Notes: generated by a model from the letters alone, not told the origin. A stretch of DNA of 64,000 bases from an uncultured Gammaproteobacteria bacterium (GCA_964524845.1 CAZGFX010000002.1:157422-221421), one strand, 5' to 3'. Numbered from the stretch's first letter, positions 50,701-64,000 are shown. Translations and numbers: made by a program.

Positions 50701-52025
50701 TGTCCATCTGTAATAGCAACATTTGCTGATGCGTTTCCTATTGTAACGGTACCGGTTGATGTTCCTGTGTTTATATTCGTTGCAAAGTTTGAATTTGCAT
50801 TTAAAGAGATGACCGCACCACTTGCTGTGGTTGTTCCTGTAACAGTAAGGCCGGTTAAGCCTGATGCGACACCGGCTGATGACACATCCCACGATGATGT
50901 ATTTATTGCTAGTGTATTTGAATTTCCACCTATTGATACAGCACCCGTTGATGTTCCTGTATTGATGTTTGTCGCGAAATTAGAACTTGCATTCAGAGAT
51001 GCTATTCCGCCACTGGTTGTAGTTGCTCCCGTAACAGTAAGGCCGGTAAGACCTGATGCGACACCGGCTGACGACACGTCCCACGATGATGTATTTATTG
51101 CTAGTGTATTTGAATTTCCACCGATTGATACGGCGCCGGTTGATGTTCCTGTGTTTATGTTTGTAGCAAAATTAGAACTTGCGTTCAAAGATATTGCTGC
51201 GCCCGAGCTTGTGACTGCTCCAGTGTTTGTAATTCCTGTCATGTATGATGTTCCGTCCACTTCGAGATCATTCTGAATATATAAATCACCAAGTCCATCG
51301 GCGTTGTTTGCTGTACCAGCTGAACCAGTACGGATAAGTCCTCCATCTAGAACCCGAAGAGCGGATGTGCCATTGTCCTGTACATCGAGAATACCTCCTG
51401 TTCCTTGTTGATTGATGACGATCGCTGATCCACTTGATGTATTTACGGTCACAGATGTATTTGCTTGAAATGTGTATGATCCTGTTATTGTTTCGTTTTC
51501 TGATGTGTCTGCAAATTCTTCTTCTGATTTACCATCAAGAGCGTCTGTGTTAAATGCATAAGGAGATGCGGTCATTCTTTTTCTTGGCAAAAAAACTTCT
51601 TCGTACGATCCATTGTTATCAGCATCAAGACGAACCTCGAGATATAAGTTATCAGTATTGAAATCAAGAGAACCAGGAAGAGATGTATGAGTTCCTATAT
51701 CAACTGAGAATATTCCATCAGTAAGTGAAACTTGAGATGTTCCTGAATTCCACGTCTCTGTATAAGCGGCCGATCCTCCTGTGCTAACTGTAAAAAATGC
51801 AAACTGCATATTGTAACTGCTGTTTGCAATATTAATACCATTTGATGCTGTGATCTTGGCTTGATAAGAAAGTTTTTTGTTTATACCTGCGGCACCATAA
51901 ACAATCGGCACCCACGTAAAAAACAAACACGCTAAAACAAGCGCGGTAAGAAGCTTCCTTAAGACTGAAAATCGTATTAAAACAAGCATGGTAATTTTTA
52001 CGAAAACCTTTTCAGTTAGCGCCAA
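41751..52025 (-). CDS. giant (3424 aa) membrane-anchored, repeat-rich fibre-like surface protein with an internal phage tail-fibre S74-type intramolecular-chaperone-like module
   Basis: N-terminal TM/signal; Gly/Ser/Thr/Asn-rich beta-repeats; recurring motif [IV]G[IV]GDxxPxSL[FL]TVGxGDxFQVNSSG (tail-fibre-like NVGIGT..P class); about 64-aa and about 113-aa tandem repeat families; a large block duplicated 2160 nt apart. About 679 aa from the C-terminus lies SSRRYKKSITDIETDTSKIFDLRPVSYTPNEL...GLIAEEAAEVLPQLVFFDNQG...YEILSVLLLKEMQ (pattern of the peptidase-S74 chaperone domain), then a Pro/Thr-rich C-terminus. Confidence 0.85.
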   Translation of the reverse strand: MALTEKVFVKITMLVLIRFSVLRKLLTALVLACLFFTWVPIVYGAAGINKKLSYQAKITASNGINIANSSYNMQFAFFTVSTGGSAAYTETWNSGTSQVSLTDGIFSVDIGTHTSLPGSLDFNTDNLYLEVRLDADNNGSYEEVFLPRKRMTASPYAFNTDALDGKSEEEFADTSENETITGSYTFQANTSVTVNTSSGSAIVINQQGTGGILDVQDNGTSALRVLDGGLIRTGSAGTANNADGLGDLYIQNDLEVDGTSYMTGITNTGAVTSSGAAISLNASSNFATNINTGTSTGAVSIGGNSNTLAINTSSWDVSSAGVASGLTGLTVTGATTTSGGIASLNASSNFATNINTGTSTGAVSIGGNSNTLAINTSSWDVSSAGVASGLTGLTVTGTTTASGAVISLNANSNFATNINTGTSTGTVTIGNASANVAITDGQWSVSGAGAASFVGVNSTTGLIQGTGGLTVSGASSSINENSNFATNINTGTSTGAVSIGNSSNALTLGGIIQGASPLVFEGATDDTYETTFSITDTTASDKTITFQDNTGVVPLGTAGNTLFFTTSGATSITLPTSGTMATGTGTNGYVAYWNGTNSLTSEQYLSVGRGGTGTGTEFTSGSLVFAGGSGVYSQDNTNLFWDDTNNRLGIGTASPQQRLHVSGSAAGSYIAGRIENTGLNGAADFDFINDARQWKMGVNANDDFRIQDTTGGSINVFVIEDGASVNSLYVNSSGNVGVGTSAPSTFKLQVAGSVGPNSDDSYDLGSSSLRWRDLYLGPSSLHVYSTAAETTTARDWKIGIQETDGSSEGNLRILEGTNEFLNITPAGNIGIGDTTPASLFTVGNGDLFQVNSSGAIASVQGITNTGAVTSSGGAVSLNASSNFATNINTGTSTGAVSIGGGSNTLAINTSSWDVSSAGVASGLTGLASSGNILFNSLGTESGVYTDSSGYLTTTPPSTGTLGYWTRSGTNLSPSITDDTISISSSDVTNPVLSLTSLDLQTDASSSISHNVTMNPSDIATLYGYKLNISNNPQNEDYVDTVYGMHINIDDDFGGYRNTITGLYVDTDTANSRDNTYSAVFNGGNVGVGDSSPDSLFTVGNGDLFQVNSSGAIVSVRGITNTGSFVTSGNTVYINHGSNFATNINTGTSTGTVTIGNASANVVITDGQWSVSGAGAASFVGVNSTTGVIQGTGGLTVSGATSSINASSNFTTNINTGTSTGAVSIGNASNALTLGGVIQGASPLVFEGATDNTYETTFAITDPTVSDKTITFQDNTGVVPLGTAGNTLFFTTSGATSITLPTSGTVATGTGTNGYIAYWNGTNSLTSEQYLNVTRGGTGTGTQFTSGSLVFAGGSGVYTQDNSNLFWDDTNNRLGVGTSTPASTLSVLSQNDASDIMEALRIERINYDSSGAQGLGASIGFYLENDQDGLSQAAGIDVVWEDPRETREKASVIFNHMNNSSMSEAFRISYEGYIGIGDSSPTSLFTVGNGDLFQVNSYGNLVKVNNVSYSWPASQGASNTYLRNDGSGNLTWVTVSGTGDITTVGSMTSGDVFMDANADDDWLGLGAAAGRITFDDQATDYVNILSANVGIGETTPASLLTVGSGDTFQVNSSGNLVKVNNVTYSWPSAQGGAGTVLSNNGSGTLTWVTGSGTGDITTVGSMTGGDVFMDANADDDWLGLGASAGRVAFDDQATDYVNIMSANLGVGDATPASLFTVGDGDLFQVNSSGNIVKVNNVTYSWPGSQGSSNTVLRNDGSGNLTWVSAGTGDVTSVGSMTSGDAFSDANADDDWLGLGSIAGRIAFDDQATDYVNILSANVGIGDATPASLLTVGNGDLFQVNSSGYALYPLGAVGTPSVSFVSDPNTGIYSSGADALDFATGGTNRMTINSSGNISVGTTATSYSKFTISSNQANSSVYNWLTFDNQGGGYGDWTIHKQNTNDLAFSSGTTNGQTLSNTVMTLLYGGNVGVGDITPDQLLEIMSSGAANTQFTISNTNAGNYDSQIGFELADGTNTFTMGIDDSDSDKFKISTTALGTNDRFVIDSSGNIGIGTNTPSSILHLSKANTTATVIDTLTMNVTRPSMDNTGLGSGIVTYLEDNDGMGLEAGSIDTVWESAGVNSGVSSMRFNVRNTGSMIEAMRVDNAGYVGIGDSSPASLFTVGSGDLFQVNSSGYAYHPLGAVGNPSISFVGDTNTGVYSSGADTIDLTTAGTRRLSVTSGGLVGVGAFSNPLYPPSSLLDIEQTGTDGGLTDFIEITNTRQASSNTQTGVLFNQWFSGSVDDPGVDGSARIIVGTEGAWNDTASTRDSYFSLQTSLNGDLYERMRINSNGYMGIGDTSPDAMLDVASSSAINTNVFVVNTNAGDYDTAIGFQLAEGTNSFTMGVDDSDSDKFKISTTGLGTSDRFVIDSSGNIGLGFATPSTNLHLYENSTQTTPMLMLQQAGTGDPAIGFVSDTSSSSGHYVMGIDSSTSYDDFVIGFNDGSYPPTFDNSYGFFRVMPSDGSVNLSGIYDDSLEMKLGYFEDSYIRYTGYNGTSIRFGLGTNAPSANFHIYENSTETTPMLKIEQMGTGDATLMFKSGDDTVSMGIDTSAPNISKFKMSMSGDGGAWTGTALTVSYSGRELILGDPDDSNITIGSSIDMNRSLFLTSEDPQIAFSDTNVLVYSNSGPNDFNIETNSVNRFSITSDGDAYFYGGRLEADNDFFVNGDSFLGYTEIEGSFYASSTVAFDGLPSSGTAGTAIHINGSNQLFKYTSSRRYKKSITDIETDTSKIFDLRPVSYTPNELPDLPENRTFGLIAEEAAEVLPQLVFFDNQGRPDSVHYEILSVLLLKEMQKTKTNILDPLMNGTLALSLPKISSDGGVIQSDGLGNITTGTIKTNSFSSDNGLITSNGLGTLSVNNLAVTSGISGGTLTIGSFSSDGGLISTNGAGTLTAKNIVVTDTVNVGNGLADSHTESPIALADDTNTKLDGTFTSTSIVGALNELNRQVFDLAKYYQVGDLSIEQGDLVSIDPSDSESVVKATRTSGKSVIGVVTEHPNTTLETTSDDQSSKLVVLVGRVPVKIDINHSADIVTGDYLSSSPDMPGYAIKATGPGFVVGQAMSGWSSGIEPSTNSVIVFVQPQYWIGMATTDELYGLSLVFDDEEVVEGDDDVQVQPSAGDIQGVYIDPSDVQQTPDPNVQNIVEDINPQYNKWSLGDGLQIDVAIMSLTGALVVKEKAVFEKDLVVKGNVEIQGTLVVRDAVTLEKNLELKGGLSVVSKDVAGSVRFSYNQITQHIAFVAPKKNEVLVSLTPKFEDPDTARSWKGRVWVSNQTEEGFDIEMSEPVCDVATEPGCAKFVDVTWLAFEVGTDQINRDTINPNVPIYINNPTPPTDSLAEIIETSEPIPETPASPVIVDQPVSTPVTTTSSGETTPTSETGTDVSMVENQ
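46480..47560. repeat. three tandem copies of an about 339-nt (113-aa) unit inside the giant gene (VNNVTYSWP..QG...DANADDDWLGLG..AGRIAFDDQATDYVNILSANVGIGDATPASLLTVG)
   Basis: Near-identical DNA blocks starting near 46520, 46861 and 47200. Confidence 0.7.
50540..51290. repeat. intragenic tandem repeats of about 192 nt (64 aa: ASSNFATNINTGTSTGAVSIGGNSNTLAINTSSWDVSSAGVASGLTGLTVTG...) inside the giant gene; further copies near 48380-48620 and 49255-49450
   Basis: Repeated peptide strings visible on both the coding strand and antisense ORFs (50551-51276, 48382-48624, 49255-49449). Confidence 0.7.
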
Positions 52026-52103: not shown

Positions 52104-52138
52104 TAATAATAAAATAAAAATGGCTCTAATAAGCCATT
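52104..52138 (-). terminator. AATGGCT-ctaata-AGCCATT hairpin with minus-strand U-tract, downstream of the 52240 gene
   Basis: 7-bp stem; minus strand continues TTTTATTTTATTATTATAT. Confidence 0.45.
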
Positions 52139-52239: not shown

Positions 52240-53628
52240 TTATTTTATATATTCTTTATTAAGGATTTCTCGTGTTTTCGGACCGACATAGCCTGTCACT
52301 GAAATTCCTCTTGCACGCTGGAAATCTGCCACGGCATCTACTGTGACTTTTCCATAAATTGCACTTGGATTTGTGTTTGCTGGAAAAAATCCGATTTTTT
52401 GCAAGAATGTTTGAAGTAAACGAACCTCTTCATCGATAGATCCTTCTGTAAGAAACTTAGTAAACACAATTTTTGAATCAGTAGGAACCGGTTTTTGTTC
52501 AAAATTATCTGAAACAGAAGAACTTGTTGGCATTGAATTCTCGACTAGAATTGTATTTAAATCTGATGTAGTTATTCCTAAACTCAAAAACCTCATTATA
52601 GAATAAGCCGCGCTTCCGTCTTTCATGTAATACCTTTTTTGATCAGCTGGATTTATATACCACGCCTCTCCTCTAGATTCTACTTGAAGCAAAATTCTTC
52701 CGCTCAAACGATTAATTAATTTCGTATCATAAATTAAAGATCCACTTCCTATTGGATTTGTGTTTTTTATCAACGCCTCGTCTCCATCACTTATGCCATC
52801 TCCGTCCGTATCTTTCTGAGTAGGCGATGTTTTCAAAGCCTCCTCTAATTTATCAGATAAGCCATCATTATCCGTGTCAGCGTCTTTAAAACGATTTTCT
52901 GTTCCAATAGGTATCTTTGATAAATCAGAATTTGTAATTCCTAATCCGAAATTACGAAGCGCTTCATAAGCCACTGGACCATCTTTTAAATAAAAACGTT
53001 TTTTTGTAACAGGATACACATACCAAGCCTCACCCTTTGATTCTACTTGAAGAAGTATTTTTCCTGATACTCTATCCAACAAACTCCCACTGGTTATATT
53101 TTTATTAACCGAATTCGTGTCAGAAGAACCACCAACAACTAGCGACGGAAGTCCTTTAATAATGTTTGTTCCTTTTCCGTCGTTTGCTAGAATCGCCCCT
53201 GATATAAACTTCCATTCCGCAAATCCCTTCTTTTTTACAGTAAAATTAACAGTCATCACAAGACCCTTGTCTCCTTTAAATCCGGGATTGAATAAAACAC
53301 CTTCAAATTGAATCGCGTTCGTATTTTTTACAACGGGGGTTGTAAGCCAGAGCTGAACGATTGAATCGTTCGTAATAATCGAATCAACAGTAATATAATC
53401 CGATGAAAAAGACATCTCTCCAGAAACCGCGTTAATTGATTCTGAGTCGGAAGACGTTGTTATTTGTAAGGATCCTTTTTCCCCAATTGAATAATCTGAT
53501 TTGTTTGTTGTAATCGAAAAACTAGCAATTCCAATGGCATGTGTTTCCTTTTCGCACTGAAAAAAAAGTGCGCCTACAATAATTGCGACGAGGATGAAAA
53601 AATTAATTGTATAAAAAAATGTTTTCAT
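52240..53628 (-). CDS. secreted/anchored protein: cohesin-like beta domain, duplicated about 55-aa module, thrombospondin-type-3-like Ca-binding repeats, C-terminal peptidoglycan-binding (PG_binding_1-like) domain
   Basis: Start at MKTFFYTINFFILVAIIVGALF (4-nt ATGA overlap with the upstream gene); DADTDNDGLSDKLEEAL / DTDGDGISDGDEAL; duplicated SG[KR]ILLQVES[KR]GEAWY..P...KR[FY]Y[LM]KDG..AY; C-terminal EEVRLLQTFLQKIGFF...GKVTVDAVADFQRARGISVTGYVGPKTREIL. Confidence 0.6.
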   Translation of the reverse strand: MKTFFYTINFFILVAIIVGALFFQCEKETHAIGIASFSITTNKSDYSIGEKGSLQITTSSDSESINAVSGEMSFSSDYITVDSIITNDSIVQLWLTTPVVKNTNAIQFEGVLFNPGFKGDKGLVMTVNFTVKKKGFAEWKFISGAILANDGKGTNIIKGLPSLVVGGSSDTNSVNKNITSGSLLDRVSGKILLQVESKGEAWYVYPVTKKRFYLKDGPVAYEALRNFGLGITNSDLSKIPIGTENRFKDADTDNDGLSDKLEEALKTSPTQKDTDGDGISDGDEALIKNTNPIGSGSLIYDTKLINRLSGRILLQVESRGEAWYINPADQKRYYMKDGSAAYSIMRFLSLGITTSDLNTILVENSMPTSSSVSDNFEQKPVPTDSKIVFTKFLTEGSIDEEVRLLQTFLQKIGFFPANTNPSAIYGKVTVDAVADFQRARGISVTGYVGPKTREILNKEYIK

Positions 53629-54554
53629 GATGTTTTTTTGAGCTTGTATTTTAGAATCAGTTTTATAAGCAGACCAAGAAGCAGGATTCCACCAACCAAA
53701 TACCATACGTAATATATTATACTTATAGACTCAAATATGTTTCTTGGAGGAATTGTTATAATTCGCGCATTTCCATAATTATCAACTGCTTTTATTAATA
53801 TGGTGCTTCTTAACCGCTGGTCTGATAGAATAAAAGGACTTTCTGCTTTTTTCCAAACAACAGAATTGTAATCTCCATTAAAATTTTGAATCTCTGCTAT
53901 AAAATATTCTTTTATCCCGCTTTCTTTGTCTTGTGTATGAAAAATCAAAGAATTTTTTCCATCAAAAAGATTTTTATCTTGCCCGATTATAGGAGAAAAT
54001 ATTTCTGGTGGCATCTCGTCTTTTTCTAAATTTTTTGTTTTTATGCCATCATTAGAAACAGGTGCGTCAGTTTTTTTTATGCTTATTTGTATTACTGGTT
54101 TTGAAACAGATAATAAACTTCCAAGACCATCGTTTTTGAGAACAACAACATCTTGAAACAGAGCATTCCACACGCCATTATCAACTGCTTTGCATTTCAA
54201 TTTAAAAATATTTCCATTTGATGATGAATAACCTCCCGGAATAACTCCTGAAAAATCAATTATTCCCTTCTCGTCTATGATTGGTTTTTTTATCCACAAA
54301 GAAACAAAAGAGGTTCCTGTGTTTATACTATTACACGATAAAACCGAAGATTGAATTGATAACCTTCCTTCAATGGCGTTTAATGATTCTTTTTCAGTAT
54401 CTATTAAAACATCAATATCTAATACATCCCCTACTTTTTTATCATTATATATTGGCTCTATAAAAATACGTGCAGCATTTGAAAAAGAAGGAAATAAAAA
54501 AATAGAAAGGACTGCAACAAAAAATAATAATTTATATCTATTTATGATACTCAT
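53625..54554 (-). CDS. signal-peptide protein with cohesin-like domain and C-terminal TM anchor
   Basis: 309 aa; MSIINRYKLLFFVAVLSIFLFPSFSNA signal; beta-sandwich-like region VGDVLDIDVLIDTEKESLNAIEGRLSIQSSVL...GNIFKLKCKAVDNG; C-terminal YYVWYLVGGILLLGLLIKLILKYKLKK anchor. Cohesin call is tentative. Confidence 0.45.
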   Translation of the reverse strand: MSIINRYKLLFFVAVLSIFLFPSFSNAARIFIEPIYNDKKVGDVLDIDVLIDTEKESLNAIEGRLSIQSSVLSCNSINTGTSFVSLWIKKPIIDEKGIIDFSGVIPGGYSSSNGNIFKLKCKAVDNGVWNALFQDVVVLKNDGLGSLLSVSKPVIQISIKKTDAPVSNDGIKTKNLEKDEMPPEIFSPIIGQDKNLFDGKNSLIFHTQDKESGIKEYFIAEIQNFNGDYNSVVWKKAESPFILSDQRLRSTILIKAVDNYGNARIITIPPRNIFESISIIYYVWYLVGGILLLGLLIKLILKYKLKKTS

Positions 54555-54557
54555 ATA

Positions 54558-55634
54558 TTATCCTGTCCAATGATAAATCAATATACTAAAATCAACCAAG
54601 GTTATCTTTCCGTCCTTATTTAAATCCATATTATTCGGATATCCGCTTCTACCATACCAATACATCATTATGGAAAAATCAACCAAGTTGATTTTTCCAT
54701 CAGTATTAAAATCAACTCCTTTTACAACCAAAAGAGGCTCTGATTTGATTGTTTTATCACTTACATCAAAAACACTCAAAACACTCTCGTTGCTTTTTCT
54801 ACTATTTTTCATCGCCTGAACAAGAAATGAATATTCTCCCTTTTTTAGGTTTTCGGTACTAATATTGATTACATACGCACCACTCCTACCACTTTTGCTA
54901 TTTATATTTATTTGTTTCTCGCCACCGTTAAGACTTGTTGTTATATCACTATAAGGCATAGTATATCCAGAAACAATTAACGAATCTCCTTGTTTCACTT
55001 CCTTAGAATCTGTATATACTGTTGGGGAAATAAAAATATCATTAAACGAAACCGTTGTTCCTTTTTCTACTTTTACGGGAATTGACACGAATCCTGATCG
55101 AAGCCCAGAAGGATCTGTAACAAATATTGTAAAAGTATATTGACCCGGATTAACATCGTTGATACTAAAATTAAAAACTCCATCACTTCCTATATTAATA
55201 GTTTTGACGGAAACGGAATCTCTCAGTACTGACAAAATGCTATTAGGATATGCGTATCCTGAAAAAAACACATCCGTGGTTGTGATCTGTGAAATAATAG
55301 ATCCTCCTCCACCACCACCGCCTCCTCCACTTCCTCCGCTAGGACAAGAACCACAATCAACGGCACAATTACTACATGTTTCCGTTGGTGTTGTGCATAT
55401 TCCATTACCACAAATAACAGGGTCTGTTTCATCATTATCAAGCGCATCTATACATCCCGGATCTGTTGGAAAATCAATTTTTGTATCACTGTCATTATCA
55501 ATTCCATCACTACACTGTGATGTCGCTGTAATTTCAAGCGTGAATTGAGAAGTTCCTGCACTATATAAAATCATAGGCAGAATAATAAATCCACCGAGAA
55601 TCATTGAGTATATTACTGTTTTTAAAATTTTCAT
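54558..55634 (-). CDS. dockerin (type I)-containing secreted protein with Cys/Asp-rich Ca-binding-like N-terminal module and poly-Gly linker
   Basis: C-terminus DFNTDGKINLVDFSIMMYWY...DLNKDGKITLVDFSILIYHW is two canonical dockerin Ca-binding repeats (D-x-N-x-D-G-K-I-N/T-x-x-D); GGSGGGGGGGGGS linker; N-terminal TM/signal. Confidence 0.7.
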   Translation of the reverse strand: MKILKTVIYSMILGGFIILPMILYSAGTSQFTLEITATSQCSDGIDNDSDTKIDFPTDPGCIDALDNDETDPVICGNGICTTPTETCSNCAVDCGSCPSGGSGGGGGGGGGSIISQITTTDVFFSGYAYPNSILSVLRDSVSVKTINIGSDGVFNFSINDVNPGQYTFTIFVTDPSGLRSGFVSIPVKVEKGTTVSFNDIFISPTVYTDSKEVKQGDSLIVSGYTMPYSDITTSLNGGEKQININSKSGRSGAYVINISTENLKKGEYSFLVQAMKNSRKSNESVLSVFDVSDKTIKSEPLLVVKGVDFNTDGKINLVDFSIMMYWYGRSGYPNNMDLNKDGKITLVDFSILIYHWTG

Positions 55635-55651
55635 GATCTATATATATAATA

Positions 55652-58600
55652 TCAATTTGCGATAACGCTGACCACCATCGGGAGAGAATAACTACCAGCA
55701 CCCTGACTACTTGGGACTGTTTGTGATAATGTTGCTCCGGTTATATCCCAATAACATTCTGTTTGCGATAATGTGTTTGTTGAAAGAAGAGTAATAGAAT
55801 CAGTTACACCTTGATTAAATGCGGATGAGCCACCAACAGAAAGACCTATGCGTGTACATCCTGATTCAGGCGTAATTGTTATTACCGATGGATTGATTGT
55901 TAATTGTCCTCCAACACTATCTACATCTCCTCCGTCTGCGCACCCAACAGGAATACCGTTTGGATCATTAAAATCATATGCACTTCCTCCGGCCTGCCAC
56001 GTTGCTACCGCACCACCTGAAGGAGCTATCGAAAGTGTCCACCGATTGTTTCTGGTTGCATTCGATACACGTATCTTCTCAGCACTTACACCAAGTGTAC
56101 CTGTGGTTGTTTGACATTGAAATTGAGTAGTAAGCGCTGAAAAACCGACTGACGGTGATCCCACGCTTACACCTCCTGCATCAACTATATCAACTGACAA
56201 TATTCCAGCATCTTTTTTTGCCCACCTCACACTCATCATAGCAAAATCCCAATCCCTTGTTCCAGGATTTACAGCAGTACCAGCAGAAGTACGCATGCGC
56301 ATGTTCATATTGTTTGTGGATGTATTCACATTATCATCTGGCGATGTCTGATACTCCGAGTAAACCCAACTATCGCTCCACGAATATGTTGTTGCAGCGT
56401 TAGTGTCTGTACTTGGTGTATTCACCCATCCACTAGTTCCTGCAACTCCACTATAATCACGAATCTGCGGATCCATGGTTTGAGCGGCATTATTTGATCT
56501 ATATTTTGCCGCATAATGAACTCCTGTAATAGACGTATTTGCTCCAACCGACACAGGAAATGACATGTTTTGAGATGCTGCATATTCAGCTCCGGTTCCA
56601 TCTGCATCGTTATCCTGAGGATACCACGTTGTAGGAGTATATTCTGTTACAGCCGTTGCTTGCCAAGTACTTGTTGCTGGCGTTGCTGTTTTTCCTTCCC
56701 TTGTGTCACGAGTATTCACACAATTTGTCGCTGTTCCTGTTCCCCAAGATATTTCACATTGTGATGAGTCTGTATTAACAGATCCGAGCATCATATAAAT
56801 TCGATCAAACTGCATATTATAAACTGTTCCGGGAGAATTGGTTAAAAAACGAATCCAAATCTCACCTGTTCCGGATATATAATCGGAAAGAGTAAATCCC
56901 GGTATGGTAGTGCTATTAAACGCATATCCATACTCAGTATCAGTCGCGCACGCGGATCCAGTTACACTTCCTCCGAGTTGAGTCCATGTTCCGTTTGAAA
57001 ATCTTCTCGCATATACACCGAATGTAAGTGCTGTATTTGAAACACAAATTTCAGGCGAGACCAGAATTGTGTTCATTGTTGAATACGAATTTATATTTTT
57101 AAATATATAATAAAAATCAACAGCTTGTGATATGGCCGGCATAGGAATTGTAATCTTGTTGCCATCACTTGCTGTTAAATTCGTTGAAACAGCTCCAACA
57201 AGATCGGATATGTAATTTGTTGTTGTTCCAGCGCTTGTAATTGTCATGTTTGCCGGTTCATAAACAGGATCGACAGCAACTTCGACTCTTGCAACATCTA
57301 GTCTGTGCTGAACTGTGGATGCGACAGTCGAGTATGTACGAATAAGAACTCTGTTATTACTTCCGGTATTAATAAAATTTGTAAGTAGTGTACTTATTGG
57401 ACTTCCGGGGGTTGTGACGCGTGTTGAAAAATATCCATCATATATTTCATAGTTTCTTGATGTGTCTGCTGTGTTCGTATATGTTGTTTTTCTTGGATGA
57501 AGTGTTCTCCATCCTCCTCCTGTACACTGAGCATCAGCTGCATTATCAACACTTGTTGTTGATGTCCAGTCACATATCTGATGAATATATGCGTTTCCTG
57601 TTGTTATGTTCGTGTCCTCTATTGTTATAATCATCTTGTTCGCACCATATAACTCTACATTATCAAAATAAACCTGTTTATTCAGTCCTCCTGGATTTGC
57701 ACGAGCAGTAGTCCAATATATATCATCCGATCCGAAAGAACCTCTATATGAACGAACATTTGAAACGCTAGATGCGACCTCAGATCCTGTAACAAGCTGG
57801 CCACCTGTAACTGGATACTGAGCGATCAAAGTACGACGATTAGTCTCTTCTATCCATCTCACGCTCATCATTGCAAAATCCCAATCTCTTGTTCCAGGAT
57901 TTGTCGTGGTGCCAGCAGAAGTACGCATACGCATATTCATATTGTTTGTGGATGTATTCACATTATCATCAGGAGATGTCTGATATTCGGCATTCACCCA
58001 ACTATCACTCCAAGAGTATGTTGTTGCGGCGTTAGTGTCGGTACTTGGTGTATTTATCCATCCGCTGGTTCCTGCAATTCCGCTATAATCACGAATCTGT
58101 GGATCCATGGTTTGAGTAGCATTATTTGATCTATATTTTGCCGCATAATGTATTGCCGTCACAGACGTAAGTGGACTTACTGTTATTGGAAATGACTCGT
58201 TTTGAGATGTTGCATATTCAGCTCCAATTCCATCTGCATCGTTATCCTGAGGATACCATGCTGTAGGAGTATATTCTGTTACTGCTGTTGCTTGCCATGT
58301 TGTTGTTGCCGGCGTTGCTGTTTTCCCTTCTCTTGTATCACGAGTATTCACACAATTTGTCGCCGTACCTGTTCCCCAAGATATTTCACATTGTGATGAG
58401 TCTGTATTAACAGATCCGAGCATCATATAAACACGATCAAACTGCATATTGTAAACTGTTCCAGGGGTGTTGGTAGCGAATCTTATCCGTGCTTCTCCAC
58501 TGTTTGATATATGATCAGCAAAATTAAAACTAGGGATCGTAGTACTATTAAAAGCATATCCGTATTCGGTGTCAGTCGCACACACTGATCCGGTTACGCT

Positions 58601-59629
58601 TCCTCCGAGTTGAGTCCATGAACTGGAATTAAAATTATATGCATATATTCCAAAGGTCAGAGCTGCATTTGAAACACAAACCTCCGGAGAAACTAGGATT
58701 GTATTCATTCCTTTGTATGCTTTTATATTTGAAAATGAAAAATATATGTCCGCCGCCTGTGATATAGCCGGCATAGGCACGGTCATCTTCGTATCATCAC
58801 TTGCCGTAAGGTTTGTCGACACGGCCCCAACAAGATCGGATATGTAATTTGTTGTTGTTCCAGCGCTTGTAATTGTCATGTTTGCTGGTTCATATACAGG
58901 ATCGACAGCAACCTCTACTCTTGCTACATCTAAATGATGTTGATAATTAGATGTTATTGTAGAATATACACGAATAAGAATTCTATTATTATTACTTGTG
59001 TTTATGAAGTTTGTTAAGGGTGTACTTATAGGACTTCCGGGAGTTGTGACGCGAGTTGAAAAATATCCGTCATATATTTCATAATTTCTTGATGTATCCG
59101 CTGTATTCGTATATGTGGTTTTTCTTGGATGAAGTGTTCTCCACCCTCCTCCTGTACACTGTGTGTCGGCTATATTATCAACTCCTGTAGTAGAAACCCA
59201 ATCACACACTTGATGTGTATATGAAGCAGCTGATATCCTGTCTTCTATTGTTATAATCATCTTGTTCGCACCATATAGCTCTACATTATCAAAATAAACT
59301 TGTTTATCTGTTCCTCCTGGATTTGTTCGTGTGGTTGACCATAATATATCATCCGAACCAAAAGCACCACGATACGAACGAACATTTGTCGCACTTGATG
59401 CATTCTCTGTTCCAACAACAAGCTGGCCACCTGTAGGAGTAAACTCATATATCGCCTTTGCACTAGGAACTCCGTCATTATTTAAAATATTAGAATAAGT
59501 ATTATTATAAAAATTATTATCAAAAGACTTTGGAATAATATTACTTCCATTCAATAAAAATACTCCCGCAAGCACGAATATTGCGATAATGCGTCTAAAA
59601 AACAAAATATATTTTGTGTTTATTTTCAT
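55652..59629 (-). CDS. large (about 1325 aa) secreted Thr/Asn/Ser-rich surface protein with an about 1.63-kb tandem intragenic duplication and a C-terminal WxL-like domain
   Basis: Start at MKINTKYILFF (signal); two about 544-aa near-identical halves (antisense ORFs 56570-56764 and 58202-58396 are near copies, offset 1632 nt); C-terminal about 200 aa ...NNRWTLSIAPSGG...SQTVPSSQGAGSYSLPMVVSVIAN homologous to the whole 62525-63229 protein. Confidence 0.7.
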   Translation of the reverse strand: MKINTKYILFFRRIIAIFVLAGVFLLNGSNIIPKSFDNNFYNNTYSNILNNDGVPSAKAIYEFTPTGGQLVVGTENASSATNVRSYRGAFGSDDILWSTTRTNPGGTDKQVYFDNVELYGANKMIITIEDRISAASYTHQVCDWVSTTGVDNIADTQCTGGGWRTLHPRKTTYTNTADTSRNYEIYDGYFSTRVTTPGSPISTPLTNFINTSNNNRILIRVYSTITSNYQHHLDVARVEVAVDPVYEPANMTITSAGTTTNYISDLVGAVSTNLTASDDTKMTVPMPAISQAADIYFSFSNIKAYKGMNTILVSPEVCVSNAALTFGIYAYNFNSSSWTQLGGSVTGSVCATDTEYGYAFNSTTIPSFNFADHISNSGEARIRFATNTPGTVYNMQFDRVYMMLGSVNTDSSQCEISWGTGTATNCVNTRDTREGKTATPATTTWQATAVTEYTPTAWYPQDNDADGIGAEYATSQNESFPITVSPLTSVTAIHYAAKYRSNNATQTMDPQIRDYSGIAGTSGWINTPSTDTNAATTYSWSDSWVNAEYQTSPDDNVNTSTNNMNMRMRTSAGTTTNPGTRDWDFAMMSVRWIEETNRRTLIAQYPVTGGQLVTGSEVASSVSNVRSYRGSFGSDDIYWTTARANPGGLNKQVYFDNVELYGANKMIITIEDTNITTGNAYIHQICDWTSTTSVDNAADAQCTGGGWRTLHPRKTTYTNTADTSRNYEIYDGYFSTRVTTPGSPISTLLTNFINTGSNNRVLIRTYSTVASTVQHRLDVARVEVAVDPVYEPANMTITSAGTTTNYISDLVGAVSTNLTASDGNKITIPMPAISQAVDFYYIFKNINSYSTMNTILVSPEICVSNTALTFGVYARRFSNGTWTQLGGSVTGSACATDTEYGYAFNSTTIPGFTLSDYISGTGEIWIRFLTNSPGTVYNMQFDRIYMMLGSVNTDSSQCEISWGTGTATNCVNTRDTREGKTATPATSTWQATAVTEYTPTTWYPQDNDADGTGAEYAASQNMSFPVSVGANTSITGVHYAAKYRSNNAAQTMDPQIRDYSGVAGTSGWVNTPSTDTNAATTYSWSDSWVYSEYQTSPDDNVNTSTNNMNMRMRTSAGTAVNPGTRDWDFAMMSVRWAKKDAGILSVDIVDAGGVSVGSPSVGFSALTTQFQCQTTTGTLGVSAEKIRVSNATRNNRWTLSIAPSGGAVATWQAGGSAYDFNDPNGIPVGCADGGDVDSVGGQLTINPSVITITPESGCTRIGLSVGGSSAFNQGVTDSITLLSTNTLSQTECYWDITGATLSQTVPSSQGAGSYSLPMVVSVIAN

Positions 59630-59657
59630 CTTTTCAGTATGTAAAAAAGTGCAATTT

Positions 59658-61247
59658 TTATTCAATTATCATTTCTTTCTCTATGGTTGGAATTGTTTCA
59701 ATTCTTAATGATTTCTCATCTGTAAAAAACCGATAATCTGTTTCATTGATTGTGAAATTATTTCGTTCGATATCAGATTCGATGGTCTGTGAAATAATTG
59801 TGTTTGTAAGAAAATTAAATACGACAATTGATCCTTTATCGGGGCCTACCCAAAAAAGCATGTCATCAATATTCTGATAAGGTATATCGAAATTCATTGT
59901 TTCTTCATCTGCGACTTTTTGCCATTGTGTCTCATCGGTTTGTGTGTCAGCGCGCCACATCTCTTTTTTTCCTTCTGCAGTTTCAAGTGTGTAAATTTCT
60001 CGTCCATCATCAGTATTTTTTATATCAACAACATTATAAAAAGACATATCTATTCCAGGTGTGATGTCTCCGTCAAATTCTTCATATTCCACATCAATCT
60101 GTATTCCATCAACAACTAGCTCCATCCCGCGCTCAAGTGCTTTATCTGAAATAACAAATGAAACACTTAGTCTTTTCATATCCCAAAATGTTTTCAACGG
60201 AAGAATGAAATCGCTATCAAGAACACCGCCTTTTTCATATACTGGACCAAGCTCTATATCTGTTTTACCATCAAAAGAATAATACAAGAATGCCATTTCC
60301 ATATTTTCTTTTTCCAAAACATCTTCTTCTTTTTTATCTTGATTAAGTTCTAATAATTGATCCGATTCGTTTGGCACAATAATTGACTGTTCTTGATTTT
60401 CTTTATTTACATCAATATTCGGTGTATCAATTATTTCTTCATTCATTACTTGAGATTCGTCTGATTTTGTATTTGGTGTTTCATCGGTTTGTACATCTGA
60501 TTCCACTGCTGGAGCAATGTTTTCTTTTGGTTGTTCATCAAATAAAAGTGGTGTTGCGTTTATATCAGAATCGGCCTGAGTCGGCTCTTCCAAAATAAGT
60601 GTTTCCGATTCTTTGTTTTGGTCATCCACAACAAAAACACCACCATATGATGATTTACCAGCGATCATTTGTTCGCCTTGTTGAGAAATTGGTTCGTTTG
60701 ACTCAGAAACAGGCGGTGTATCTGCCGGTTTTTCAGTCTGATCGACTGATGTGGGTGTTTCTTTCTCATCAACGGTTGGTGCTAACTCTGTTGCTGTAGG
60801 AATATCCGATATTATTTCTGTTTCTTGAACAGGTTCTATTGCGCCTTGTTTTTCTTTTTCAGCTTCTTGTTCTGTTGCATCTGAATTATAAGATTGGTCA
60901 GTGACGTCTTGAATTGTTTTTTCTTCTGTTTCAGAAATTGTTTCAGAGGCGCGAGTTTTCCAATTAATATGCAGAGATGCTTTTTTAATAATTCCTCTTG
61001 GGACAATCCCTGTAAAAGAAGTGCACACTACACGAGATGATGGCACTTCTTTTTTAATTGTAGTATCTTCATCATTGTTATTTTCCTGTCTCAAAACATC
61101 AACATTTTCTTTAATAATATTAACTGTGGAACAAACAAGTGGACGGAACGACGACGTTGTCACATTTTCAGGAACAATATCAAGAGACCCCCACACAGCC
61201 CCACCTATACAAACAAGTAGCACAACAACAATACCGATGAGTTTCAT
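59658..61247 (-). CDS. membrane-anchored highly acidic low-complexity protein (start at MKLIGIVVV)
   Basis: N-terminal TM, then E/D/T/Q-rich disordered region and a C-terminal globular part; no named motif. Confidence 0.45.
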   Translation of the reverse strand: MKLIGIVVVLLVCIGGAVWGSLDIVPENVTTSSFRPLVCSTVNIIKENVDVLRQENNNDEDTTIKKEVPSSRVVCTSFTGIVPRGIIKKASLHINWKTRASETISETEEKTIQDVTDQSYNSDATEQEAEKEKQGAIEPVQETEIISDIPTATELAPTVDEKETPTSVDQTEKPADTPPVSESNEPISQQGEQMIAGKSSYGGVFVVDDQNKESETLILEEPTQADSDINATPLLFDEQPKENIAPAVESDVQTDETPNTKSDESQVMNEEIIDTPNIDVNKENQEQSIIVPNESDQLLELNQDKKEEDVLEKENMEMAFLYYSFDGKTDIELGPVYEKGGVLDSDFILPLKTFWDMKRLSVSFVISDKALERGMELVVDGIQIDVEYEEFDGDITPGIDMSFYNVVDIKNTDDGREIYTLETAEGKKEMWRADTQTDETQWQKVADEETMNFDIPYQNIDDMLFWVGPDKGSIVVFNFLTNTIISQTIESDIERNNFTINETDYRFFTDEKSLRIETIPTIEKEMIIE

Positions 61248-61339
61248 CGTATGAAGAGTAAAAAAATGATAAGCTGAATAATTTCGAGATTTGTAATCTC
61301 TTTTTTGCATTTGTTTTAGATATAATGCTCCATGTCAAC

Positions 61340-62488
61340 TTATGAATGAGGGGGAACTTTAATTTTTGTACCTGACAAAACAGTAAACGGTGGTCTTATA
61401 GAATTAACTTTAGCCAGAAGCCTCCACGAAACATTGTGTTTTTCTGCTATTTTCATGATGTCCTCATTTTCACAAACAATATAATCAACCCATGTTGTGT
61501 TTATCCATTTCTTGCGTTTAAAATACAATACGATAAGCGCAACAAGTACAATAATTAGAACTAGAATAATTAATTCAATAATAAGCGCCGGAAATGTAGG
61601 AAAACTAAAAAACCACTTGGAATCACCATCGATTATCTTCGATGGATTATCTGTTTTTACTCCTATACCAGCCGAATTACTTGAATCATATGCGATTGCG
61701 ACTGAGGTTTTGAAAAGACCTCCCCAAAAAGGCTTTTTGAGTTCAAAATTCCATTCTGATGTTTCTCCTCGAAGTACAGGATAATCTCCGCCGTGTGTCA
61801 TTAATAATGGACCAAAAAAATAACTGGTTGATAAATTTACTGTCGTATCAATTGAAACATTTCCATTGTTTTTTACTTGTGGTTTAAGCAAAAAGCTTCC
61901 ATCATCACGTTTCGTAATTGCAAAACCAACAATCTCAAGAGAACGTTTTATTTCTCCGGGTATTGTAATGGCGACACGAAGTCCTGTTCTAAGAGACAAG
62001 TTCATACCTGGAGTATCGGTGGTATCTTTCTTCTCTTGCATTAAAATACAACCATTATGTTCTCCTACGCTTGCGTTTCCTGGTACTGAGATAACAAATG
62101 GTATAATTTCGTTTGTTTTTGGTTCGAGTGTGACTTCTGTTTTTGAAAGACTGATCCATGCTCCAACGTCTTTCTTTTCTTCAACAAACTGTTTACAAGC
62201 GAACCCTCCTCCGGATGACGGAGTAGAATCAGCCGAGTATACGAGAATGGTTTTCTTTTCAGAGCTATTATTTACTACGACCACGCCTTCGTCTTTAGTT
62301 GAACCTGGCTCCAGTGTATGAATAAAAATATCCTCTGTACGAGAATTGTCTTGGCGCGGATACGCTGGCCGTCCTCCTATTCCGCCGTATTCAACTGCGG
62401 ATACTGGGATAGCCATAAACAGAGCAAGTGCGCACACGATTGTTGCGCACAAGCCCCGTTGTTTCTTAACCGAATTATATATCGACAC
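61340..62488 (-). CDS. cell-surface protein with signal peptide, DUF916/DUF3324-like (CscA-like) ectodomain, C-terminal TM anchor followed by a LysM motif
   Basis: 382 aa; signal MSIYNSVKKQRGLCATIVCALALFMAIPVSA; TM ALIIELIILVLIIVLVALIVLYF then KRKKW; C-terminal YIVCENEDIMKIAEKHNVSWRLLAKVNSI...GTKIKVP LysM-like. Confidence 0.45.
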   Translation of the reverse strand: MSIYNSVKKQRGLCATIVCALALFMAIPVSAVEYGGIGGRPAYPRQDNSRTEDIFIHTLEPGSTKDEGVVVVNNSSEKKTILVYSADSTPSSGGGFACKQFVEEKKDVGAWISLSKTEVTLEPKTNEIIPFVISVPGNASVGEHNGCILMQEKKDTTDTPGMNLSLRTGLRVAITIPGEIKRSLEIVGFAITKRDDGSFLLKPQVKNNGNVSIDTTVNLSTSYFFGPLLMTHGGDYPVLRGETSEWNFELKKPFWGGLFKTSVAIAYDSSNSAGIGVKTDNPSKIIDGDSKWFFSFPTFPALIIELIILVLIIVLVALIVLYFKRKKWINTTWVDYIVCENEDIMKIAEKHNVSWRLLAKVNSIRPPFTVLSGTKIKVPPHS

Positions 62489-62524
62489 AAGAATCTAAAT
62501 TAGAAACCAATTAGAAAATACTGT

Positions 62525-63229
62525 TTATGATGCAACGACGGAGAGTGTCATATTGATATCATAATCAGCAGCCGCTGGCTGTGAACCAGGAATTGTTTGT
62601 GAAACGGCAACTCCTTGAATTGTATAATCAGCAACATCGCTTGCGCTGGCAGCAGCAGTAGCGATTGTAATGCTATCAGTTGAATCTTCAACATAAGCAG
62701 CAGAACTTCCGAGAGTTACATTTGATGTGTTACATCCACCTACACATTGTCCGTTTGCTAGAGTCGCACCAGCTGGATTAACCGTCATTTGTCCACGAAT
62801 AGTGTCAGTATCTACTCCATCAGTACATCCTGATCCAGAAGAGTCATTGAAATCTAAATCGGTACCTGCGCTATCCCACATTGCTGTAGGAGCTGATGCC
62901 GCAAGAGACAATGTCCAACCAGAATCAGCAGCATCAGGATTCGCAACATATATTTGTTGTGTTCCTGTACCGAACGTACCTGTTGAACCAGGTGTCTGAC
63001 ACGCAAATGTAGCACTTACCGCAGAGAAGGCCACAGAAGGACTTCCAACACTTACATAAGATCCATTAACAATATCAGTAGATAATGTTCCTGGATTGAT
63101 CGTAAGTGTAAAATTGGACGTCGCAGAAGCGTATACATATGCTACTGTTCCAAAAGAAAGTGCAATAGCCACAAACATAGCGACACCAATGTTTGTTTTT
63201 TTCAAAATTGAATAAAAAATCTTTGACAT
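62525..63229 (-). CDS. small secreted WxL-like domain protein (CscB-like)
   Basis: 234 aa; signal peptide; SGWTLSLAAS motif; homologous over its whole length to the C-terminus of the 1337-aa protein (SVGSPSV[AG]FSA..., DSIT[IL], SQT[IV]P.SQ...[LM].[LV]SV[VI]A[SN]). Confidence 0.5.
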   Translation of the reverse strand: MSKIFYSILKKTNIGVAMFVAIALSFGTVAYVYASATSNFTLTINPGTLSTDIVNGSYVSVGSPSVAFSAVSATFACQTPGSTGTFGTGTQQIYVANPDAADSGWTLSLAASAPTAMWDSAGTDLDFNDSSGSGCTDGVDTDTIRGQMTVNPAGATLANGQCVGGCNTSNVTLGSSAAYVEDSTDSITIATAAASASDVADYTIQGVAVSQTIPGSQPAAADYDINMTLSVVAS

Positions 63230-63553
63230 ATTTTTATATTATATAACTATATAAACCTCAATATTCTTAAACCTTTTTTATAAACGAGGCTCCTTAATTA
63301 TAAACAATTTTGAAGAAAAGATAAAGAGAAAATAAAAAAAATAAGCCATAAAAATGGCTTATATAGAGGGTTGTTATAATATTTATAAATTTTATCTTCT
63401 TTTCATCGGGATATCTATTGAAATAAGGGATTTTTCATCTATTTGTATTATAATAGATTACCAGGTTTTATAACCGTTTTTTTCAGCTCTTATCGTATAT
63501 TTTCCTTGTTCTGAAGATAAAAAATATATTTTTATCCATCCAAAAACTTTTTT

Positions 63554-63588
63554 ATCAAAAAACCACTATACTTTAGTGGTTTTTTGAT
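63554..63588. terminator. 15-bp perfect-stem bidirectional terminator (ATCAAAAAACCACTA-tactt-TAGTGGTTTTTTGAT)
   Basis: Immediately downstream of the 63598 gene stop; T-runs on both sides. Confidence 0.7.
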
Positions 63589-63597
63589 AATTTTTTT

Positions 63598-64000
63598 CTA
63601 TTTTTGTGATAAAATATTGTTTGCCACCTCTCTCGTTTTTGGTCCAAAAAAACCAGTGCCTTTTTTTAATCCTGATGGAGATAATATTTGCTCAGCATAA
63701 GCCTCTTGGAAACGAATAACAGCGGCTTTAGTCAATATACCGAAAAGATCCGTTTCTAGACCTGGTGACCCAAGACCGCTATCAGCCAATTTGAATCCGT
63801 TTTCATTCAAGAATTTTTGCAATAAAATTATATCCGAATTTCTTTGACTATAACGCAAACTTTTCGTAAACAGAATCTTTTTACTTGAAACTTGTTTTAT
63901 ATCAGTTACTGGTATACTAATCTTCTTTTCTAAATCCAAAACCTGTGGAATATCTTTTATAATCTCTGGTTCGTAATAAATACTATCGCTAACAGTCTTC
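63598..64000 (-). CDS. peptidoglycan-binding-domain protein, N-terminal part beyond window edge
   Basis: Frame stays open upstream of the TTG the ORF track calls the start, through to base 64000 (...KTVSDSIYYEPEIIKDIPQVLDLEKK...); C-terminus LQKFLNENGF...AAVIRFQEAYAEQILSPSGLKKGTGFFGPKTREV resembles the PG-binding module of the 52240 gene. Confidence 0.55.
   Translation of the reverse strand, partial: KTVSDSIYYEPEIIKDIPQVLDLEKKISIPVTDIKQVSSKKILFTKSLRYSQRNSDIILLQKFLNENGFKLADSGLGSPGLETDLFGILTKAAVIRFQEAYAEQILSPSGLKKGTGFFGPKTREVANNILSQK

Follow-up and report, generated by a model that had tools for sequence, protein, structure and literature searches.

A WxLIP-like membrane anchor and a shared C-terminal domain in a conserved gene module of the Candidate Phyla Radiation, a candidate counterpart of the WxL cell-surface complex

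Our analysis of a 64,000-nucleotide stretch of DNA deposited under an uncultured Gammaproteobacteria bacterium (GCA_964524845.1, CAZGFX010000002.1:157422-221421; the whole stretch is here referred to as the window) revealed a cluster of genes for putative cell-surface proteins. We hold it to be moderately probable that this cluster constitutes a strongly diverged counterpart, specific to the Candidate Phyla Radiation (CPR), of the WxL/WxLIP (Csc) surface complex, in which a shared domain would dock on a DUF916-type anchor. The cluster comprises four co-directional open reading frames (ORFs) on the minus strand that fill positions 55652 to 63229, with spacings of 36, 29, and −8 bp. We named the genes and their products after their length in amino acids (aa), i.e., w234, w382, w550, and w1337, and the domain common to w234 and the C terminus of w1337 is referred to as X. 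A reading of the four genes as chance ORFs was rejected.

The DUF916 domain of w382 is homologous to that of the Firmicutes WxLIP/CscA proteins. As had been proposed in a preliminary description of the cluster, the protein begins with a signal peptide and is anchored by a C-terminal transmembrane (TM) helix; its parts are, in this order, the signal peptide, a DUF916/PGBD domain, a second beta domain, the TM helix, and a LysM tail. Pfam family PF06030 is WxLIP_PGBD, formerly DUF916. The matches of w382 to PF06030 (28.5 bits, gathering score of 27.3) and to the LysM family PF01476 (22.0 bits, gathering score of 20.9) are marginal taken alone; both families were matched by all 31 of a set of diverse w382 relatives, with best E values of 6.6e-9 and 3.2e-11, respectively. 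A profile of the w382 family matched the solved structure of EfmWxLIP1 (PDB 9i25_C / 9i1y_A) with an E value of 5e-7, and in this alignment the CPR motif RPAYPrxDNPRTESIFVHTLEPG falls on a WxLIP motif of 23 letters. Furthermore, comparison of the w382 family with seven plasmid-derived Firmicutes WxLIP proteins by hhalign gave 96.9% and an E value of 1.7e-10 over 201 columns. We found more than 550 relatives of w382 at 50 to 60% identity, named as many CPR lineages, and some of them are already labeled by NCBI as "DUF916 domain-containing" or "LysM peptidoglycan-binding." The same gene appears as a 358-aa protein in a Logan assembly (P0121) and as a 382-aa protein in NCBI (P0498); we preferred the 382-aa form with its GTG start because only the longer form has the signal peptide.

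The LysM tail, also part of the preliminary description, matched the PDB LysM chains 4s3k and 4b8v in the search with the w382 profile (E values of 8e-5 to 1.5e-4). Among the 31 relatives, the mean number of lysine and arginine residues per 15 aa was 0.7 before the helix and 5.1 after it; because of this excess, the positive-inside rule predicts a cytoplasmic location of the approximately 60-aa LysM tail and an outside location of the ectodomain, in line with the topology suspected from the outset. The conserved cysteines of X and DUF916 agree with an extracytoplasmic location of these domains. The tail after the TM helix distinguishes w382 from the seven Firmicutes WxLIP proteins, in which it is formed by 6 to 20 basic aa and contains no LysM. 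The second ectodomain of w382 is a beta domain similar in size to DUF3324, with weak fn3_5 matches in 16 of the 31 relatives.

To determine the distribution of the cluster, we scanned GTDB species genomes with the anchor-protein alignment, which yielded 80 loci, and searched the six-frame ORFs of these loci with the X and anchor profiles. The locus titles include Doudna-, Colwell-, Falkow-, Kerfeld-, Magasanik-, and Uhrbacteria, Levybacteria, Microgenomates, Peri- and Gracilibacteria, Dojkabacteria, and many Saccharibacteria. In 58 of the 61 eligible CPR loci, the gene immediately upstream of the anchor gene, in the same orientation, encodes a small X protein. In 41 of 46 CPR loci, a protein of 330 aa or more that ends in X is encoded downstream of the anchor; the median length of these downstream proteins is 787 aa (range, 343 to 2741 aa). 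The small X-anchor-large X arrangement holds in loci L001 and L004 as well. The three genes travel together across the CPR, and their order corresponds to that of small WxL, WxLIP, and large WxL in Vagococcus and E. mundtii plasmids. The likeness to csc loci noticed at first stands for these three genes and fails for w550, which had been put in the place of CscD. The cluster had also been considered unexpected in a CPR-like genome; it proved to be a conserved, syntenic module of many CPR lineages and only a distant relative of the Firmicutes system. Our literature search found no paper linking DUF916 or WxL with the CPR.

Six Peribacteria/Gracilibacteria loci (L019, L026, L031, L035, L059, and L062) were left out of the synteny counts. 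Their anchor and X genes are split into several short ORFs under translation table 11, which is consistent with an alternative code in which UGA is read as sense. Nine other loci (L028, L033, L043, L058, L060, L067, L070, L078, and L080) are titled archaeon, Gammaproteobacteria, Pseudomonadales, Ectothiorhodospiraceae, or Limnocylindria. The anchors in these loci are 37 to 58% identical to w382, like those of labeled CPR genomes, and the loci likely represent mislabeled or contaminated metagenome-assembled genomes. Variation was also seen in gene number: two consecutive small-X/anchor pairs are present in L063 and L066, and two to four adjacent small X paralogues precede the anchor gene in L056, L057, L073, and L038.

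The two X proteins of the cluster are related to each other far beyond chance. Residues 47 to 234 of w234 aligned in BLASTP with residues 1154 to 1337 of w1337, i.e., its last 184 aa, at 41% identity (E value of 6e-28), which bears out the homology claimed earlier. The W-T-L-S-[IL]-A motif and the C-terminal motif quoted in its support are present in both proteins, as GWTLSLAAS and SQTIP...NMTLSVVAS in w234 and as RWTLSIAPS and SQTVP...PMVVSVIAN in w1337. In w234, a signal peptide or anchor (residues ~12 to 34) is followed by a short extension (residues ~34 to 47) and the X domain (residues ~47 to 234). The extension reads A-S-x-T-S-N-F-x-x-T-I-N-P-G in w234 and A-S-x-T-S-x-F-x-Q-T-I-N-x-G, 13 residues, in the family; it is conserved in 72 small X proteins and absent from 36 large ones. 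We found more than 280 homologues of w234 at 55 to 72% identity; all the named ones are from Patescibacteria, and none carries a Pfam domain. The C-terminal X domain of w1337 has 120 homologues.

Next to its X domain, w1337 contains a signal peptide or anchor and two tandem cargo repeats of approximately 540 aa, which are 82% identical across 538 aa and have no match among Pfam, NCBIfam, or PDB sequences. Homologous cargo is present in six other CPR loci. With its TTG start, w1337 has an 8-bp overlap with the preceding gene; an ATG located 12 codons downstream is equally plausible. The cargo of ten large relatives consists of Laminin_G_3, H_lectin, DUF2341, an SdiA-regulated/phytase-like propeller, Ig-like domains, or nothing known.

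When a profile built from 79 small and large X domains was searched against a 50%-identity library of 1.84 billion proteins, it retrieved 769 cluster representatives, 690 of them at an E value of ≤1e-10 and 511 at ≤1e-30. Among the 147 best-scoring representatives (35 small proteins of <300 aa and 112 large proteins of 330 to 2069 aa; 200 to 2069 aa overall), X ends within 5 aa of the C terminus in 145, and all 41 large proteins of the syntenic loci carry X at the extreme C terminus. X is a shared, obligately C-terminal module and, by analogy with the WxL system, would behave like a docking module. An AlphaFold2 (AF2) model of X from a diverse alignment reached a pLDDT of 92.3 and a pTM of 0.80 and is all-beta, with 11 strands; the model from a shallow alignment (pLDDT of 58) was unusable. 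The X profile gave zero matches to PDB sequences at an E value of ≤10.

Several of our results weigh against a kinship of the module with the WxL complex, and the first group of them concerns the identity of X. The WxL family PF13731 (gathering score of 25 bits) found no match in w234 or w1337 at an E value of ≤1 and none in 34 X relatives at an E value of ≤10, while genuine small WxL proteins scored 143 to 229 bits with the same tool; the NCBIfam scan of X found nothing. We compared X by hhalign in local, low-MAC, and global modes with small-type, large-type, and pooled WxL alignments. The comparison with nine verified WxL proteins gave a probability of 0.7% (E value of 0.084) and that with trimmed domains 0.8 to 1.4% (E values of 0.04 to 0.07), and the control comparison of small-type with large-type WxL gave 95.1% (E value of 3e-8). 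HMMER searches between the X profile and 13 proteins of Firmicutes loci (12 from WxL clusters and one Ig-like neighbor), run in both directions, remained at ≤12 bits. Similarly, tblastn of X found nothing at an E value of ≤1 in a plasmid collection with more than 120 WxLIP loci, and no match at an E value of ≤1 in phages. The hallmark of the WxL domain is two conserved Trp-x-Leu motifs (PMC9772566). In X, the first motif has Trp in 77 of 79 sequences, and its +2 position is occupied by Leu in 28 of the 79, by Ala in 24, and by Val in 22; the second has Leu in 60 of 79 sequences and never Trp, so that the dual signature is absent. Foldseek searches of the X model against PDB and BFVD found nothing at an E value of ≤0.001, and the WxL chain 9i25_A was outside the top 50 matches, the presence of this entry in the fold library being unconfirmed. 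With the direct membership tests negative or marginal, X is not demonstrably a WxL domain, and the designation of the large and small proteins as WxL-like was not upheld. The second group of results concerns the anchor. PF11797 (DUF3324), predicted for w382 in the preliminary description, was not detected in w382 or its 31 relatives at an E value of ≤1, while Firmicutes WxLIP controls scored 97 to 113 bits for this family, and the isolated second domain of w382 gave only 0.2% in hhalign against the Firmicutes HBD. Moreover, the WxL model assigns no function to a LysM domain in the cytoplasm. Thus, of the two kinds of profile support on which the first interpretation had been made to depend, that for DUF916 was found and that for WxL was absent.

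Nevertheless, X and WxL could be aligned collinearly at a low threshold over 160 columns, with an hhalign score of 17.9 that was reached by 1 of 100 column shuffles. The motif pairs in this alignment are, with WxL given first, GPLSIDYV and GTLSVDIV, VQVxDxRGxxxGWxLxV and IYVxNPDAADNGWTxSLA, LxGAxxSL and GGQMTV, GxGTW and IGDW, and YxxxLTWxL and YDINMTLSV. We regard this resemblance as a weak lead, not as proof; a common ancestry of X and WxL may be supposed.

The docking of X on the anchor is proposed by analogy. In Firmicutes, an association of WxLIP with WxL proteins has been published, along with an AlphaFold prediction in which a hairpin of DUF916 is inserted into WxL (PMC10599100, PMC9772566). 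In PDB entry 9i25, EfmWxLIP1 is accompanied by a "WxL domain surface protein," and a WxL profile found chain 9i25_A of this entry with an E value of 3e-4. Because of this published association, we suggest that X would serve as a docking module that binds the DUF916 ectodomain, and perhaps the wall, noncovalently. All proteins of the unit carry a hydrophobic segment at the N terminus and would accordingly be exported by Sec. The anchor w382 would be held in the membrane by its single C-terminal helix, with the Ig-like DUF916 domain and the second beta domain outside and the LysM tail of approximately 60 aa remaining in the cytoplasm. Docking through X would retain the small and large X proteins on the cell, and the variable N-terminal cargo, here the two 540-aa repeats and elsewhere lectin-like, Ig-like, beta-propeller, or unknown domains, would point outward, where it might bind glycans or host-cell surfaces. 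The dockerin-bearing, TM-anchored, and PG_binding_1 proteins encoded downstream probably extend the same surface assembly. Both the contact between X and DUF916 and the adhesive role of the cargo are presumed from the likeness to the Firmicutes system.

The LysM tail is difficult to place in this scheme. LysM domains are usually extracytoplasmic, and the predicted topology of w382 departs from this placement. The Escherichia coli protein Kbp (YgaU) is located in the cytoplasm. This BON-LysM protein binds K+ and provides a precedent for a LysM role besides wall binding (PMC6562680).

The extension of the small X proteins also allows a different view, that the module builds a fiber by donor-strand exchange. 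In this monoderm form of chaperone-subunit logic, the small X protein would polymerize as the major subunit, with its extension serving as donor strand; the tip adhesin would be the large X protein, which has no extension; and the membrane-anchored DUF916 protein with its two domains would act as a strand-donating chaperone or assembly platform. The distribution of the extension among small and large X proteins is what such a fiber would predict, although these residues might be no more than the initial strand of the fold or the signal-peptidase site. The PDB fold leads for X include the donor-strand-complemented subunits CfaB, FimA, Caf1, CsuA/B, and CanA (probability of 0.57 to 0.85) and, at a probability of only 0.05 to 0.2, type II cohesins; all of these leads have E values of >0.01, TM-scores of 0.25 to 0.36, and root-mean-square deviations of 8 to 15 Å. 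Two small X proteins weakly matched Peptidase_M73 (TasA/camelysin; E value of 0.05), but NCBIfam showed no SipW-type signal peptide, and the unit encodes neither an usher nor a sortase. For a surface protein, small X is unusually conserved, with 55 to 72% identity across CPR classes, and AlphaFold predicts that Firmicutes DUF916 completes the WxL sandwich with a strand (PMC10599100). Taking these points together, we consider the fiber unlikely. The more general proposition that WxLIP-type proteins of the CPR, and by extension of Firmicutes, act as anchored chaperones or platforms that build a donor-strand-linked surface fiber seems improbable to us too. In such a fiber, the small X protein would polymerize through its extension, the cargo-bearing X protein would cap the tip, and the LysM tail would couple the assembly to the cell interior. 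If true, bacteria that have no outer membrane would possess a chaperone-subunit pathway, and the fiber would be a candidate for the structure by which episymbiotic CPR cells attach to their hosts.

The invariable position of X at the C terminus, behind variable cargo, is that of cell-wall anchors, and X could accordingly be an autonomous wall anchor of the kind of SLH, CWB2, or WxL domains. In that case, the DUF916-TM-LysM protein would have a separate role as wall-linked scaffolding or in signaling through its LysM tail, and the adjacency of the genes would reflect coregulation. WxL domains were reported to bind peptidoglycan (PMC9772566), and a further wall-binding domain, PG_binding_1, is encoded in the unit; X, however, matches no known wall-binding family, and the adjacency of the small X and anchor genes in 58 of 61 loci argues for a direct partnership, as does the documented WxL-WxLIP association (PMC10599100; PDB 9i25). 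We give this view a low probability. Finally, a recent horizontal transfer of a csc/WxL locus from Lactobacillales to a CPR genome, which the shared gene order could suggest, was rejected as most improbable, since it is contradicted by the CPR-wide distribution of more than 550 CPR-named anchor relatives at 50 to 60% identity, by a relation to Firmicutes WxLIP that exists at the profile level only, by the lack of a detectable Firmicutes relative of X, by a CPR-specific LysM tail that Firmicutes WxLIP proteins (tails of 6 to 20 aa) do not have, and by a local GC content of 0.35 to 0.41 that matches the remainder of the window.

In contrast to the three genes of the counterpart proposed here, w550 is a lineage-specific accessory of w1337-type cargo and not a core part, because its homologues are confined to loci with such cargo: they were found in 3 of the 80 CPR loci (L040, L052, and L054), exactly loci carrying w1337-type cargo. 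This distribution does not suit an equivalent of CscD, as which the acidic protein had first been taken. Aspartate and glutamate make up 20.7% of w550 (isoelectric point [pI] of 4.19), its sole hydrophobic segment is N-terminal (TM or signal anchor), and no domain was recognized in it by Pfam or NCBIfam. The slot between the anchor and large X genes holds variable accessories; in Nomurabacteria-type locus L004 (positions 9090 to 10073), and also in L005 and L006, a Beta-lactamase2-like gene lies between the anchor and large X.

The four ORFs were confirmed over the extent first described, and the unit runs on beyond it to position 52240 through three further syntenic genes, w358, w309, and w488 (Table 1). 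The product of w358 has a signal peptide, a Cys-rich region, a Gly run, Ig-like domains, and a C-terminal dockerin, and matches Y_Y_Y, Big_6, and Dockerin_1 (E value of 4e-7) in Pfam; its homologues follow the large X gene in 36 of the 80 loci, and another does so in L004. A signal peptide, a beta domain, and a C-terminal TM helix make up w309, which has no Pfam match and has homologues in 27 of the 80 loci. In w488 (homologues in 29 of the 80 loci), an N-terminal TM segment is followed by a beta domain as in w309, TSP3 repeats, and PG_binding_1 (Pfam E values of 1.4e-12 for TSP3_bac and 2e-15 for PG_binding_1). Since cohesin hidden Markov models (HMMs) found nothing in w309, w488, or their relatives, the term "cohesin-like" for their beta domain is a by-eye impression only. 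Two terminator-like hairpins upstream of w234 mark the start of the unit and a third follows w488, and these hairpins suggest that w234 through w488 form one seven-gene transcription unit. A promoter scan was uninformative, with 42 sites against 46.6 expected.

Table 1. Positions in the window of the genes, domains, and hairpins of the unit
Feature	Position	Strand	Remarks
w234, small X protein	62525-63229	-	234 aa, pI 4.05
w382, WxLIP-like anchor	61340-62488	-	382 aa, GTG start
DUF916 / WxLIP_PGBD domain	62039-62368	-	w382 residues 41-150, PF06030
Single C-terminal TM helix	61523-61591	-	w382 residues ~300-322, hydropathy 3.65; KRKKW next
LysM domain	61352-61483	-	w382 residues 336-379, PF01476
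w550, acidic accessory	59658-61310	-	550 aa, pI 4.19
w1337, large X protein	55652-59665	-	1337 aa from TTG start
Cargo repeat 1	57845-59452	-	w1337 residues 72-607
Cargo repeat 2	56213-57826	-	w1337 residues 614-1151
C-terminal X domain	55655-56206	-	w1337 residues 1154-1337
w358, syntenic accessory	54558-55634	-	358 aa
w309, syntenic accessory	53625-54554	-	309 aa
w488, syntenic accessory	52240-53706	-	488 aa
Terminator-like hairpin	63341-63362	-	5′ of w234
Terminator-like hairpin	63552-63590		upstream of w234; 17-bp stem
Terminator-like hairpin	52119-52138	-	after w488; likely unit end

The hairpin with the 17-bp stem separates the module from a gene just upstream for a small basic 113-aa protein with PG_binding_1 (positions 63598 to 63939, minus strand). 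Directly downstream of the module, a giant secreted, repeat-rich protein of 3424 aa is encoded on the minus strand (positions 41751 to 52025), with Peptidase_S74 at residues 2751 to 2806 (E value of 1.2e-7) and approximately 600 residues beyond it. Peptidase_S74 is the intramolecular chaperone of endosialidases and tail spikes, and the giant protein can be described as a tail-fiber-like surface fiber that is possibly self-cleaving. Across the window (1-64000), the GC skew is negative in nearly all 2-kb bins, long ORFs are almost all on the minus strand, and no tRNA genes were found.

Patescibacteria (CPR) are ultra-small bacteria that are thought to live attached to other microbes and, to our knowledge, little is known of what holds their adhesins at the cell surface. 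The small X-anchor-large X trio probably holds variable sticky proteins on the CPR surface, by analogy with the WxL system, and belongs to the few surface systems whose conservation spans many CPR lineages, Parcubacteria groups included. Strong conservation of the small protein and the anchor, combined with hypervariable, often lectin-like cargo, is the pattern expected of a generic platform for host-specific display. With this module, the range of the WxLIP/DUF916 system becomes much wider than previously known; more than 91% of WxL sequences were reported to be from Firmicutes (PMC9772566). The predicted cytoplasmic LysM tail of the anchor is an unexplained oddity. The X domains form a large, uncurated family (769 representatives at 50% identity), to which a profile and a name could be given. 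As Saccharibacteria carry the module, a cultivable carrier strain could serve genetic tests.

Among known systems, cohesin-dockerin scaffolds of the cellulosome type resemble the unit in combining dockerin-bearing with TM- or wall-anchored beta-domain proteins, and type II cohesins are among the weak fold leads of X; unlike in these scaffolds, no protein of the unit matched a cohesin HMM, and no enzymatic cargo was identified. Chaperone-usher pili (PapD/FimC, FimA, and FimH) share with the module a two-beta-domain protein, for which strand donation is predicted in the WxL system, a small subunit with an N-terminal extension, and a large cargo protein whose subunit domain lacks the extension, and pilins are among the weak Foldseek leads of X. 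The CPR module differs in that it has no usher or outer membrane and its "chaperone" would be membrane anchored; no gene of the unit matched PapD or usher families in Pfam, and the pilin fold matches were not significant. The WxL/Csc system of Lactobacillales and Bacillales consists of a small WxL protein (CscB), a large WxL protein (CscC), an LPXTG protein (CscD), and WxLIP (CscA), the last composed of DUF916, DUF3324, and a TM helix. The module falls outside this system on three points, namely the WxL domain, the DUF3324 domain, and the short-tail architecture. Its shared domain X is not PF13731, has no second Trp motif, and gave no significant profile or fold match; a single domain type, at 41 to 72% identity, is common to its small and large proteins, whereas small and large WxL differ; its second ectodomain is not recognizably DUF3324, and an additional LysM domain follows the helix on the predicted cytoplasmic side; LPXTG/CscD is lacking, its place being taken by dockerin-bearing, TM-anchored, and PG_binding_1 proteins; and its hosts are CPR bacteria, not Bacilli. 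What the module and the WxL/Csc system have in common is a membrane anchor with a signal peptide, a homologous DUF916 domain, and a C-terminal TM helix, an acidic, essentially single-domain small protein and a large protein bearing that domain at its extreme C terminus, adhesin- or lectin-type cargo in the large protein, and the gene order of small, anchor, and large.

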